Shown here: positions 3,554 through 5,828 of the stretch, piece after piece
Layout of the letters: every line of letters starts with the position of its first letter
Position numbering within the stretch: position 1 is the stretch's first letter
Virus genome (UHGV): UHGV-0036483
Strand: one strand, 5' to 3'
Length of the DNA: 54,587 nucleotides
Origin: a virus
Position numbers and translations under genes: made by a program
Notes under the pieces: model-generated
What the model was told of the DNA's origin: nothing
Database searches by the model: none
What the model saw: only the letters and a program-made list of their open reading frames with translations

Positions 3554-4093
3554 ATGAAAAATGATTTTGGAGGCAGCAGTACGCCGAAGGAAATTAAAGA
3601 CCTGTGGCAGACACCTAAACCAGTTTTTAGAGGAATGGATTGTGAGTTTGAATTTGTCGCTGACGTGGCGGCAAACAAGGCAAACGCATTAATCCCGCGA
3701 TATATAACCGAAGAAATGGACACGCTTACTTATCCGTGGGGAGCGGTGGCAATGCCTGGTGAATATGTGTGGATGAATCCGCCATACTCAAACCCGGGGC
3801 CATTCGTTGATAAAGCGGCGCTTGAACACAGCCGAAACCACATCGGTTGCGTAATGTTATTGCCCGCTGACATTTCTGTTAGCTGGTTTATGAACGGCGT
3901 TGAGACGGCAAGCGAATGCCGATTAATCACGCGCGGGCGGCTGGCTTTTATAAATGCTGCGACTGGTAAGCCAGTGAGCGGAAACAACAAAGGGAGCTTG
4001 TTTTTGATCTGGCATCCACGGTGCAGACATGAATGTATTTTCACGCAGATAACACGTAAAGAGCTATATGCAAGAGGTGCAGAAAATGACTAG
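3554..4093 (+). CDS. phage DNA N6-adenine methyltransferase (Dam family)
   Basis: WQTPKPVF, WMNPPYS (NPPY catalytic motif), LLPADISVSWF, GRLAFI: characteristic phage Dam-family motifs; first ATG at 3554 after GGGTGG. Confidence 0.85.
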   Translation: MKNDFGGSSTPKEIKDLWQTPKPVFRGMDCEFEFVADVAANKANALIPRYITEEMDTLTYPWGAVAMPGEYVWMNPPYSNPGPFVDKAALEHSRNHIGCVMLLPADISVSWFMNGVETASECRLITRGRLAFINAATGKPVSGNNKGSLFLIWHPRCRHECIFTQITRKELYARGAEND

Positions 4094-4541
4094 TGCAGCA
4101 GATTTATTACGACTTGCAGCGGAAACAATAGAGCAAAGAGGTAAACAAAACGGCTACGACAGAAAAGAGGAAAAATCAGCGCCAAAAATAGCCACTATTT
4201 ACAACGCTAAGAAGGGTGCAAATTTAACCCCACTTGATGTATGGGATCTGTTAATTTGTCTTAAGGAGGCGCGTTTAGAGGCAATTTTGGCTAATGGTTC
4301 TGACCCTACTGATACTTTGGTTGACTTAATCAGCTACAGCGCACTAAAAGCGGAGCAAATATTAAATGATCGGGAGAATGAGCAAAAGAAAAATCAGTTC
4401 ACTGCCGCCAATATTAATGATGGAATAATAAATGATGGGGTTATAACATTCCGTAATGGCTCTTCAGAGATTAACCCTCAATGTCGTTGCACTACTGATT
4501 TGCTTGATTTGAATTTTGGGTATCAGTCAGAAGAGGGATAG
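4086..4541 (+). CDS. hypothetical protein (151 aa)
   Basis: ORF track (4068..4541); ATG at 4086 follows AGAGGTG RBS. Confidence 0.45.
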   Translation: MTSAADLLRLAAETIEQRGKQNGYDRKEEKSAPKIATIYNAKKGANLTPLDVWDLLICLKEARLEAILANGSDPTDTLVDLISYSALKAEQILNDRENEQKKNQFTAANINDGIINDGVITFRNGSSEINPQCRCTTDLLDLNFGYQSEEG

Positions 4542-4545
4542 CCAA

Positions 4546-5049
4546 ATGGAAAAGGTGGCAATTGACAGGTTACTGGCCTGCGTTTATGTCGCCGTTTTCG
4601 TGATCATCAACCTTATTGTTAACCATTGCGGCCCGTGGGTAATTCCGATCACTACGGTAGCCGCTGTGTGTGTCAATATGATGATCCGCGACTTTCTGTT
4701 ATATGACGGCGGCCTGAAATGGTCGGCTACAACATGCGCCGTCGCTGGCGCAATCACGGTGCTGATAAATTATGACGCAGGGATGGTGGCAATCGCGTCA
4801 TTCGTCGCGGTTGTTTCCGGTGCGCTTATATCTGGCGGTGTTTACCGGGTTTTGCCTGGTGATTTCGATTCGAAGCGATGGCCTGCAAACATAGCTTCAG
4901 CCATCGGTGATGCGCTGATTTTCCCCACACTGTCGTTCATGGCGTTTATGCCGGAAATATCAGCGATGCAATTCATCTCAAAAATGGCAGCGGTAACGGT
5001 GATCACTATCATCATGCGCCGCTATTTCACGTTTGAGGGCAGAAAATGA
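4546..5049 (+). CDS. polytopic membrane protein, possibly YhhQ/VUT-like transporter
   Basis: ORF track (4516..5049); ATG at 4546 after AGAGGGA; several hydrophobic helices; family assignment tentative. Confidence 0.5.
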   Translation: MEKVAIDRLLACVYVAVFVIINLIVNHCGPWVIPITTVAAVCVNMMIRDFLLYDGGLKWSATTCAVAGAITVLINYDAGMVAIASFVAVVSGALISGGVYRVLPGDFDSKRWPANIASAIGDALIFPTLSFMAFMPEISAMQFISKMAAVTVITIIMRRYFTFEGRK

Positions 5050-5828
5050 GCAAGGCTAAACACTGGTTAAATAACTGGCTAAGAAACTGGGTTGTGTGGT
5101 CGCTGTACGACGGCAGCGGGTACGCCGTTAAAGACTGGGCGGATGCTGGATATGAGTGCTATTGCTTCAACTATGACGGCGCAAATCACGGCGATTATGA
5201 AGGCGTTAAAATTATTCACCCGAATATTGAATACGTTAACGTATGGATTGACAGTCACTTCCTGGTGATGTTCTCGCCTGAATTATCAGTTTACCCGGAG
5301 CCTGATATTATCCTGGGTTTTCCGCCGTGCGACGATCTCGCCGTGTCTGGTGCTCGCTGGTTCGCTGATAAACGGAAAAAAGATCCTGACTTCCAGGTGA
5401 AGGCGGCGAATAGCGCAAAACTGGTAGAAAAACTGGCGGATATGCACAACGTGCCGTGGATGGTGGAAAATCCGGTGGGCGCACTGTCAACGCTATGGCG
5501 TAAACCTGATTTTATCTTCAATCCTTGCGCTTACGGTGGCTACCTGCCGGAAGATGACAAACATCCCGCTTTCCCTGATGTTTACCCGGCGCGCGACGCG
5601 TATACAAAGAAAACTTGTATTTGGTGCGGTAACGGATTTAAACAGCCGCTTTTCAGACCTGTAGATCTTAACTCTGGTGATAACCCGGGATGGGCTAAAA
5701 CTGGAGGCCGGACGAAACGAACAAAGATGATCCGCTCGCTAACGCCGCGCGGCTTTGCCCGTGCTGTATTCCTTGCTAACGACAGGGCCATCAATCGTAC
5801 TACGCTTAACCGTGTTTTGCCGGACTGA
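5046..5828 (+). CDS. putative DNA cytosine-C5 methyltransferase (short, orphan)
   Basis: GFPPCDD (PC motif IV), MVENPVG (ENV motif VI), degenerate motif I LYDGSGY; no adjacent endonuclease. Confidence 0.55.
   Translation: MSKAKHWLNNWLRNWVVWSLYDGSGYAVKDWADAGYECYCFNYDGANHGDYEGVKIIHPNIEYVNVWIDSHFLVMFSPELSVYPEPDIILGFPPCDDLAVSGARWFADKRKKDPDFQVKAANSAKLVEKLADMHNVPWMVENPVGALSTLWRKPDFIFNPCAYGGYLPEDDKHPAFPDVYPARDAYTKKTCIWCGNGFKQPLFRPVDLNSGDNPGWAKTGGRTKRTKMIRSLTPRGFARAVFLANDRAINRTTLNRVLPD

Follow-up and report, generated by a model that had tools for sequence, protein, structure and literature searches.

Solitary Dam- and Dcm-type methyltransferases flank a DUF6378 protein and a predicted YhhQ/VUT-family permease in the early operon of an mEp021-like phage

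What might two DNA methyltransferase genes be doing on either side of a small protein and a membrane protein in the early region of a temperate phage? This arrangement had been noted in a preliminary description of the virus genome UHGV-0036483, made from the sequence alone, and we have followed it up in the same DNA (referred to as the window, i.e., the whole 54,587-nt stretch that was analyzed). All four ORFs were confirmed at the coordinates in Table 1.

A four-gene cassette in the early right operon

The segment from 3554 to 5828 consists of four tightly spaced genes on the plus strand, its limits coinciding exactly with the ATG start of the Dam gene and the stop codon of the Dcm-like gene. 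The block forms part of the early right operon in an E. coli phage that is temperate and resembles mEp021 (mEpimmI), with small hypothetical genes upstream and NinF-like, NinG and RusA genes, and Q, downstream. The Dam and DUF6378 genes overlap (ATGACTAG), a gap of 4 nt separates the DUF6378 gene from that of the membrane protein, and the latter shares an ATGA overlap with the Dcm-like gene; translation of the four genes is probably coupled. Alternative starts exist for the Dam gene (GTG at 3545), the DUF6378 gene (ATG at 4068) and the permease gene (TTG at 4516). A Shine-Dalgarno-like sequence, GAGGGA, lies ahead of the permease ATG at 4546.

Table 1. Coordinates of the genes, protein motifs and hairpin in the four-gene block
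Feature	Position	Strand	Basis or remarks
Dam-family DNA N6-adenine methyltransferase, 179 aa	3554..4093	+	PF05869, TIGR01712, PHROG 111
NPPY catalytic motif (motif IV) of Dam, aa 75-78	3776..3787	+	Read from translation
DUF6378 protein, 151 aa	4086..4541	+	PF19905
Predicted YhhQ/VUT-family (COG1738-like) polytopic inner-membrane permease, short form, 167 aa	4546..5049	+	PHROG 4899, profile evidence
Compact Dcm-like DNA cytosine-C5 methyltransferase, 260 aa	5046..5828	+	PHROG 757, motifs, fold
C5-methyltransferase motif I, LYDGSG, predicted SAM-binding loop, aa 20-25	5103..5120	+	G23 and S24 invariant in alignment A1
C5-methyltransferase motif IV, FPPC, catalytic C95, aa 92-95	5319..5330	+	P93, P94 and C95 invariant in alignment A1
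C5-methyltransferase motif VI, ENPV, aa 141-144	5466..5477	+	E141, N142 and P143 invariant in alignment A1
Intrinsic-terminator-like hairpin	5841..5879	+	16-bp stem, 4-nt loop, T run; ends the four-gene block

The hairpin that follows the Dcm-like gene has a predicted RNA folding energy of -24.2 kcal/mol (z = -5.7), and none of 200 shuffled sequences was equally stable. It is the counterpart of the TERM_4/nutR2 region of mEp021, where the database record has a terminator annotated at the equivalent place, 14 nt past the Dcm stop codon; in the paper describing mEpimmI, nutR2 is placed downstream of gp32. Predicted promoter sites in the region were no more numerous than in shuffled sequence (6 versus 7.3), and there is thus no evidence for an internal promoter. 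Because the genes overlap or abut, a strong terminator hairpin follows the Dcm-like gene, and nutR2 lies downstream of that gene in mEp021, we read the four genes as a co-transcribed, N-antiterminated accessory module, a view that forms part of the overall explanation that we consider likely and set out below.

The same four-gene order is repeated in mEp021, mEp554, mEp010 and MagusPhagus, and is kept in a metagenomic phage (L004) at 52-67% identity; among 5426 complete E. coli genomes, 35 carry it. In pairwise comparisons of five E. coli-phage copies (82-97% identical in nucleotide sequence), dN/dS was between 0.02 and 0.22 over all four genes, i.e., 0.045-0.114 for Dam, 0.065-0.22 for the N-terminal domain of the DUF6378 protein, and 0.017-0.063 for the permease, the lowest of the cassette. 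Purifying selection acts on each of the four. Since homologues were found for each, the order recurs and dN/dS is low, they are real genes rather than chance ORFs.

Two methyltransferases without a restriction endonuclease

The assignment of the first gene to the Dam family, originally made from its NPPY motif, is fully supported by profile searches. The protein matched PF05869 over profile positions 2-167 of 169 (E = 7.6e-51; 172.6 bits, cutoff 28.1) and the NCBIfam equivalog TIGR01712 (phage_N6A_met; 136 bits, cutoff 97.05), in both cases above the curated cutoffs, as well as PHROG 111 (E = 3.2e-63), and it has the (D/N)PPY motif in the form NPPY. Records of mEp021 and of E. coli prophages give it the same annotation. 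Both methylases of the cassette belong to known families, and are already so labelled in the GenBank record of mEp021.

The small protein encoded next to Dam, which had no family assignment in the preliminary description, is a DUF6378 protein, matching PF19905 with E = 8.8e-8 (32.8 bits, above the cutoff of 27.1). We found 232 homologues, and PF19905 was present in 120 of 120 among the matches listed. An alignment of the family (A4) revealed a conserved helical domain in the N-terminal ~95 aa followed by a variable C-terminal tail; an AF2 model contained four helices, but with a pLDDT of only 57.

The 260-aa product of the last gene matched PHROG 757 (E = 5.5e-87), whereas it matched no Pfam family, PF00145 included, at E ≤ 1. 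However, PF00145 was matched by 12 of the 29 sequences of the Dcm-like family in alignment A1 (best E = 1.3e-6). The model of the protein has a class I SAM-methyltransferase fold of the C5-methyltransferase type, with 12-18% sequence identity to solved structures, and its assignment to the PF00145 superfamily is accordingly based on motifs, fold and the PHROG 757 match. Searches of PDB with the Dcm-like protein, the permease or the DUF6378 protein, using a single sequence or a profile, yielded noise or marginal matches only. The preliminary description had regarded this short enzyme as uncertain, and had cited PC and ENV motifs: the former is part of FPPC, while the latter is ENPV and not a literal ENV, and both the methyltransferase fold and the invariance of the key residues across the 29 sequences bear out the assignment. 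C95 aligns with C82, and E141 with E128, of the Dcm proteins of phages K42 and KarlJaspers. Motifs VIII (WRKPD) and IX (TKMIRSLTP) are separated by ~70 residues, and residues 211-220 in this region were modelled with low confidence (pLDDT ~60).

The preliminary description also did not contain the observation that this C5 enzyme is part of an extensive phage family, already characterized and known to trigger a retron. This family has more than 7670 members, is found in 1518 phage records, and is spread over many unrelated lytic phage families. For K42 Dcm, 5mC activity has been shown by LC-MS and mutagenesis, a quadruple mutant in which C82, E128, K175 and K176 were jointly altered being inactive (bioRxiv 10.1101/2023.08.16.553469). 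In the same study, Dcm of KarlJaspers (Bas06)/K42 was identified as the trigger of retron Ec86, and phage Dam and Dcm were regarded as anti-RM tools.

No restriction endonuclease gene was found adjacent to either methylase or within several kb, the immediate flanks being occupied by the small hypothetical and NinF-like/NinG/RusA genes mentioned above. Thus, the proposal that both are orphan methylases holds. The genome contains 243 GATC sites (0.95 of Markov expectation) and 127 CCWGG sites (0.94), i.e., neither is avoided, and GGCC, GTAC and CTAG are depleted; for GATC and CCWGG, such frequencies are consistent with methylation-based protection, although they are weak evidence for it. A Lar-type restriction-alleviation gene, present in the metagenomic phage L004, was not found among the window ORFs after Q.

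We consider it likely that the Dam, DUF6378, YhhQ/VUT-type permease and Dcm genes together represent an accessory module whose methylases serve in anti-restriction. Dam would methylate adenine at N6, probably in GATC, which we take to be its target by analogy with its family, and the compact Dcm would use SAM and Cys95 to methylate cytosine at C5, probably in CCWGG, as proposed for its homologue with 62% identity; these specificities, being taken from homologues, could differ. Both enzymes would most likely pre-methylate replicating phage DNA during lytic growth, with the result that, in the next host, progeny would be refractory to those restriction enzymes that cannot cut DNA with Dam- or Dcm-type methylation. 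E. coli K-12 and the other usual hosts already have Dam and Dcm. For that reason the benefit of the phage copies would be conditional, and the protection would be relevant on hosts that are deficient in dam or dcm or that methylate differently. Recognition of the phage Dcm by retron Ec86 would be an expected side effect. If this is correct, mEp021-like phages and prophages should bear m6A and 5mC independently of the host, should withstand such methylation-sensitive restriction enzymes, and should be sensed by that retron.

The presence of Dam and Dcm in the usual hosts could also be taken to mean that the phage enzymes act chiefly in phage-internal regulation (replication, packaging or the timing of gene expression) or in counter-defence against systems other than restriction, and the location of the genes in an early operon, beside recombination and replication functions, would suit such a role. 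However, the spread of the Dcm family over many unrelated lytic phage families fits a general protective role, as does the treatment of phage Dam and Dcm in the retron study, and we regard regulation as a distinctly unlikely main function. What the anti-restriction module gives no reason for is that a permease and a DUF6378 protein should stand between the two methylases.

A predicted permease without DpdA

The membrane protein had tentatively been called YhhQ/VUT-like, and this was borne out by transitive and profile evidence. The protein itself matched PHROG 4899 (E = 3.6e-46), but its match to Pfam Vut_1 (PF02592), although colinear across profile positions 6-149 of 152, was well under the cutoff (E = 0.31; 11.8 bits, cutoff 27.2). 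A full HMMER search identified 247 remote relatives, and 54 of the 57 sampled matched Vut_1 (best E = 1.9e-16). In addition, a profile of the family aligned by hhalign with E. coli YhhQ over 137 columns (probability 92.5%, E = 4.8e-7), and one relative is a fusion with QueF. Close homologues numbered only 12. A Kyte-Doolittle scan revealed several hydrophobic segments over the whole length, in overlapping windows that do not allow the helices to be counted separately; the mEp021 record gives six transmembrane helices for the counterpart (TMHMM and Phobius). On this evidence, the protein belongs to the YhhQ/VUT family of queuosine-precursor transporters, as a distant member of reduced length; by homology, its substrate would be a small heterocycle, most likely a 7-deazaguanine (queuosine) precursor, carried across the inner membrane.

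A new point to emerge is that the usual partner of this subfamily is absent. Of 80 viral loci with permease relatives, 74 had a DpdA-like DNA transglycosylase gene nearby, the permease usually being directly downstream of it. An HMM built from 58 of these DpdA-like neighbours, when run against a six-frame translation of the whole window, gave a best match with E = 0.72 and 4.6 bits, and no TGT-like match was seen in Pfam and PHROG scans, which covered the window ORFs that were non-structural or unknown. The annotations of MagusPhagus, and of the ~15 kb of mEp021 examined, likewise include no DpdA, and preQ0-synthesis genes were not found among the window ORFs scanned, which took in part of the small ORFs, or among annotated genes of its relatives. 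The closest relatives of the permease (L004, L005-8 and L013) also have no DpdA in the sequence at hand, and their contexts are varied: a scan of the neighbours of L005-8 and L013 for a shared partner turned up only an endolysin, a DNA ligase and uncharacterized PHROG 2510 proteins, with no common theme. A transporter without DpdA is a modest oddity, and we think it rather unlikely that in mEp021-like phages it has acquired a DpdA-independent function, such as the import of 7-deazapurine precursors by which queuosine-tRNA of the infected host would be reprogrammed, or the supply of an unrecognized modification step involving the co-conserved DUF6378 and compact Dcm.

In one version of such a function, the permease would act alone, importing preQ0 or preQ1 so that more host tRNA is modified with queuosine and phage translation is improved. 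Its place in the YhhQ superfamily, the relative fused to QueF, its position as the most constrained gene of the cassette, and the contrast between the DpdA linkage of its relatives and the lack of detectable DpdA in the window are all in keeping with this idea, and Hutinet et al. put forward the identical role for phages that have preQ0-pathway genes but not DpdA. On the other hand, E. coli already has YhhQ and de novo synthesis of preQ1, deletion of yhhQ from phage CAjan caused no change in DNA modification, and any substrate assigned to so short and divergent a subfamily is putative. We regard this reading as possible but not probable.

Alternatively, the protein may no longer be a transporter, having been repurposed, e.g., for superinfection exclusion or interference with membrane-associated defence, or may carry an unrelated substrate. 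It is indeed shortened (167 aa against 221 aa for YhhQ) and below the Pfam threshold, and its nearest relatives likewise occur without DpdA in varied contexts. However, seven columns were invariant in the alignment of 57 diverse relatives (N22, G29, R48, D49, D122, F131 and K146), of which the window protein, as the reference of that alignment, necessarily carries all. The charged or polar residues among them (N22, R48, D49, D122 and K146), together with very strong selection along the full length of the protein, are more readily reconciled with a conserved substrate site than with a simple anchor in the membrane, and we find this alternative rather unlikely.

The idea that all four genes form a single DNA hypermodification pathway, in which the permease imports a base precursor that is installed by DUF6378 and/or the C5-methyltransferase-like enzyme, independently of DpdA or with a non-SAM cofactor, appears to us highly improbable: K42 Dcm, a close homologue, forms ordinary 5mC, most Dcm-family members have no VUT neighbour, close VUT homologues are few, NdeI cuts mEpimmI DNA normally, and the search for preQ0-synthesis genes described above was negative. 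That methylase and permease are obligatorily linked was separately considered and rejected, given more than 7670 Dcm-family members in 1518 phage records against 12 close permease homologues, and a KarlJaspers dcm gene with no permease nearby.

The subfamily of YhhQ-like permeases described here is usually coupled to DpdA, yet persists under strong selection in phages that have none, and mEp021-like phages offer a tractable system in E. coli K-12 for roles of phage queuosine-precursor transporters outside DNA modification.

Comparison with known systems

The window Dam is a typical member of the phage Dam family (PF05869, TIGR01712), having a full-length match, NPPY, a size of ~180 aa and no separate recognition domain, with no notable difference. 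SAM-dependent DNA methyltransferases of these two classes are also components of type II RM systems, but in the cassette the endonuclease gene is absent and both methylases are solitary.

The Dcm-like protein shares with the classical C5-methyltransferases M.HhaI, M.HaeIII and E. coli Dcm (PF00145) a Rossmann-type fold and motifs I (xDGSG), IV (PC) and VI (ENxV). However, it is ~70-220 residues shorter, has no recognizable large target-recognition domain, and differs in the lack of a PF00145 match and the low identity to solved structures noted above. It is much closer to KarlJaspers (Bas06) Dcm, with 62% identity over 234 aa, and belongs to the same compact class (236 versus 260 aa). In addition to the two aligned pairs already given, K175 and K176 of K42 Dcm correspond to K188 and K189, and the proteins share a DNPGWAKTGG loop between motifs VIII and IX and a DNMT3-like fold. 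The window protein differs in its 13-residue N-terminal and ~14-residue C-terminal extensions, in that its activity and target are predicted only, and in its setting, i.e., beside a permease in a temperate siphophage rather than in a lytic Drexlerviridae genome.

As for the permease, profile comparison indicates a superfamily in common with E. coli YhhQ, and the phage protein is likewise a predicted polytopic membrane protein, although it is shorter by the margin given above, is only ~20% identical and falls below the Pfam threshold. Its relatives in viral contigs are linked to DpdA, as is YhhQ in the 7-deazaguanine clusters of phages such as CAjan. In contrast, neither DpdA nor preQ0-synthesis genes were found in this phage, where the permease is flanked instead by methylases.

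Layout and conservation of the cassette

The window (54,587 bp) is probably a complete, permuted genome, and its region 3000-6500 shows 89-91% DNA identity to the mEpimmI phages mEp554, mEp010, mEp021, mEp515, mEp044 and mEp013 and to MagusPhagus. The mEpimmI phages are Nus-dependent temperate siphophages with E. coli as host (PMC11893012). The four plus-strand ORFs of the preliminary description were recovered at exactly the same coordinates (see table), and its observation and interpretation were both supported overall. The cassette lies in the early right operon, with small early genes on its 5' side and NinF-like, NinG, RusA and Q genes on its 3' side. 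The Dam stop and the DUF6378 start meet at ATGACTAG, the DUF6378 and permease genes are separated by a 4-nt gap with a Shine-Dalgarno-like GAGGGA, and the permease and Dcm genes meet at ATGA. Thirteen nt past the final stop codon, directly 3' of the Dcm gene, begins a terminator-like hairpin, which a simple terminator scan did not pick up and which agrees with the annotated TERM_4 of mEp021; nutR2 of the mEpimmI phages has been put at this position (PMC11893012). In the best-supported reading, the cassette would be a co-transcribed accessory module.

Coordinates of the cassette and of related features
Feature	Location	Strand	Remarks
Dam gene	window 3554-4093	+	
DUF6378 gene	window 4086-4541	+	
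Permease gene	window 4546-5049	+	167 aa
Dcm-like gene	window 5046-5828	+	260 aa
Terminator-like hairpin, then T run	window 5841-5879	+	16-bp stem, -24.2 kcal/mol, z=-5.7
ORF just 5' of Dam	window 3290-3541	+	83 aa
First ORF at Lar-equivalent place	window 8086-8289		
Second ORF at Lar-equivalent place	window 8216-8623		
Lar-type restriction-alleviation gene (PF14354)	L004:9188-9415		directly after Q gene of L004
DpdA-less permease lineage	L005:8516-9363		also in L006-L008
DpdA-like gene / permease unit	L041:4270-5007 / 4995-5480		example, two-gene unit
DpdA-like gene / permease unit	L044:4258-4989 / 4953-5459		example, two-gene unit

The gene order is common to all mEpimmI phages, occurs as prophage in 35 of 5426 complete E. 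coli genomes, and is kept in a distant metagenomic phage (L004) whose proteins are merely 52-67% identical. Pairwise dN/dS among five E. coli-phage copies (82-97% nucleotide identity, dS about 0.13-0.94) was 0.045-0.114 for Dam, 0.065-0.22 for the N-terminal domain of the DUF6378 protein, 0.017-0.063 for the permease, the most constrained gene, and 0.049-0.114 for Dcm. Because these values are low in all four genes, we conclude that the genes are real and functional.

The DUF6378 protein matches its Pfam family above threshold. Most of its homologues are variants from E. coli prophages, sharing a conserved helical N-terminal domain of about 95 aa and differing in the tail. Its predicted structure was poor (pLDDT 57), and a fold search returned nothing informative. 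In an unrelated Faecalibacterium phage, too, DUF6378 has a Dcm (225 aa), a Dam (PF05869) and ThyX in its vicinity. Among homologues that are otherwise 65-99% identical, the C-terminal third (about 4370-4541) is hypervariable, both in length and in sequence; the copies examined have 129-170 aa, and that of L004 has 99 aa. An alternative TTG start of the permease, at 4516, would overlap the end of the DUF6378 gene.

In mEp021, the position of the ORF just 5' of Dam is taken by ipe, the "inducer of pleiotropic effects". The window ORF matches PHROG 303 (function label "unknown") and has no Pfam match. A Lar-type gene is present in L004, and the two window ORFs at the equivalent place had no match to Lar, the sole match of the second being a weak one to the DnaJ CXXCXGXG zinc finger.

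Two methylases and their probable targets

The first gene encodes what its matches to PF05869 (E=7.6e-51) and TIGR01712 (136 bits; cutoff 97) identify as a textbook phage Dam protein, with NPPY at residues 75-78, as the preliminary description had proposed from that motif. Its specificity is presumably GATC, as in the family.

The 260-aa protein had been treated with more caution, because it has no direct match in Pfam, NCBIfam or, by sequence, the PDB. Its assignment as a short cytosine-C5 methyltransferase nevertheless held: it matches PHROG 757 (E=5.5e-87) and has more than 7670 homologues of 227-260 aa, and weak PF00145 matches were found in 12 of 29 family members. Lack of a methyltransferase fold, which the preliminary description had named as refuting its proposal, was checked for and not borne out. 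The family occurs in 1518 of 50,697 phage records, which range over Drexlerviridae, Klebsiella siphophages, rV5-like and RB49-like myophages, Jersey-like phages and others. About 39 "Campylobacter phage" records (about 135 kb; e.g., MG065654.1 and MG065682.1) carry this Dcm of enterobacterial type, with 55% identity, no more and no less than rV5-like coliphages show; this is unexpected for Campylobacter phages, and the records may be mislabelled.

KarlJaspers (Bas06) encodes a "Dcm-like C5 cytosine methyltransferase" of 236 aa that shares 62% identity (BLASTP 9e-108) with the 260-aa window protein. In K42, a KarlJaspers strain with a genome 95.4% identical to Bas06, Dcm triggers retron Ec86 and makes 5mC on msDNA, as seen by LC-MS; in plaque assays, defence by Ec86 was affected when the CCTGG motif of the msDNA was mutated, and the C82A/E128A/K175A/K176A mutant was inactive (10.1101/2023.08.16.553469). 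These four residues are all conserved, aligning with C95, E141, K188 and K189 of the window protein, which also has the K42-type "DNPGWAKTGG" loop (motifs VIII-IX), where many family members differ. Because of these shared residues and loop, we provisionally infer by analogy that CCWGG is its target.

The window contains 243 GATC and 127 CCWGG sites, at 0.95 and 0.94 of Markov expectation, i.e., without avoidance, whereas CTAG (0.36), GTAC (0.65) and GGCC (0.67) are depleted across the window. Non-avoidance is compatible with protection by methylation, as weak evidence. In the best-supported reading, the two solitary methylases would mark replicating phage DNA, GATC being the probable site of m6A and CCWGG that of 5mC, and this methylation would protect it from restriction. 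The Dcm family has been treated as restriction protection, the reverse side being sensing by Ec86 (10.1101/2023.08.16.553469). That the cassette encodes instead a single hypermodification pathway is unlikely, because the K42 homologue yields plain 5mC (10.1101/2023.08.16.553469), most family members have no permease neighbour, and NdeI cuts mEpimmI DNA normally.

A YhhQ-like permease and its DpdA-linked relatives

The membrane protein, tentatively described as YhhQ/VUT-like, matches Pfam Vut_1 below threshold (E=0.31), colinearly along almost the entire model. A word-indexed search returned only 12 close homologues, and an exhaustive profile search 247 relatives. Vut_1 was matched by 54 of 57 sampled relatives (best 1.9e-16), one of the 57 being fused to QueF, and the 57-sequence profile aligned with the E. 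coli queuosine-precursor transporter YhhQ (probability 92.5%, E=4.8e-7, 137 columns). It is through these relatives and this profile that the assignment stands: judged by sequence, the permease is a divergent, shortened member of the YhhQ/VUT superfamily (167 aa, versus 221 aa in YhhQ). Seven positions (N22, G29, R48, D49, D122, F131 and K146) are invariant in the 57-sequence alignment, and their presence in the window permease follows by construction, as it is the reference sequence; at these positions it has not diverged. Eight relatives (P0151, P0158, P0160, P0164, P0183, P0211, P0262 and P0269) have about 300-340 aa, with a VUT domain, then a segment resembling a signal peptide and a C-terminal extension rich in beta structure, and may be inner-membrane permease/outer-membrane channel fusions or mis-joined gene pairs. 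DUF5020 was matched in two of 57 scanned relatives.

At least 543 viral stretches in IMG/VR encode permease relatives, and 80 loci (L015-L094) were kept. Of these, 74 contain a gene belonging to one family of about 225-265 aa. In the 71 loci with definable permease ORF boundaries, the called neighbours included this gene in 60 cases, and it lay directly upstream in 56; in representative loci its stop overlaps the permease start. This family is PHROG 887 ("queuine tRNA-ribosyltransferase", E down to 4e-71), i.e., the DpdA-type DNA 7-deazaguanine transglycosylase family. The linkage agrees with the published CAjan cluster, in which yhhQ accompanies dpdA and preQ0 synthesis genes, and is a strong hint that 7-deazaguanine precursors are the cargo of the short phage VUT family.

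The window itself gave no sign of DpdA: an HMM built from 58 DpdA-like proteins found nothing in its six-frame translation (best E=0.72), and no TGT-like or Que proteins were detected when the other non-structural ORFs and those of unknown function were scanned against Pfam and PHROG. DpdA was not found in the Pharokka-annotated MagusPhagus either. In an unbootstrapped NJ tree, the permeases of the window, L004, L005 and L013, all four without DpdA in the available sequence, cluster together beside DpdA-linked branches, which suggests a sub-lineage that lost its DpdA partner. The L005-L008 permease is 45% identical to that of the window, and next to it come two PHROG 2510 paralogues (function label "unknown"); some copies have an N6_N4 DNA methylase further along.

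Most likely, the window permease would transport a precursor of the queuosine or 7-deazaguanine type. For phages lacking DpdA, a published alternative is that such a permease raises Q in host tRNA (Hutinet et al.), and it could equally move some other substrate; we consider it rather unlikely that this is a phage permease with a DpdA-independent role.

Neither the Dam nor the compact Dcm is of a new kind, the Dcm family being already characterised and the mEp021 record carrying the same annotation. Modest novelty lies in the YhhQ-like permease, which is under strong selection in a phage where DpdA was not found.
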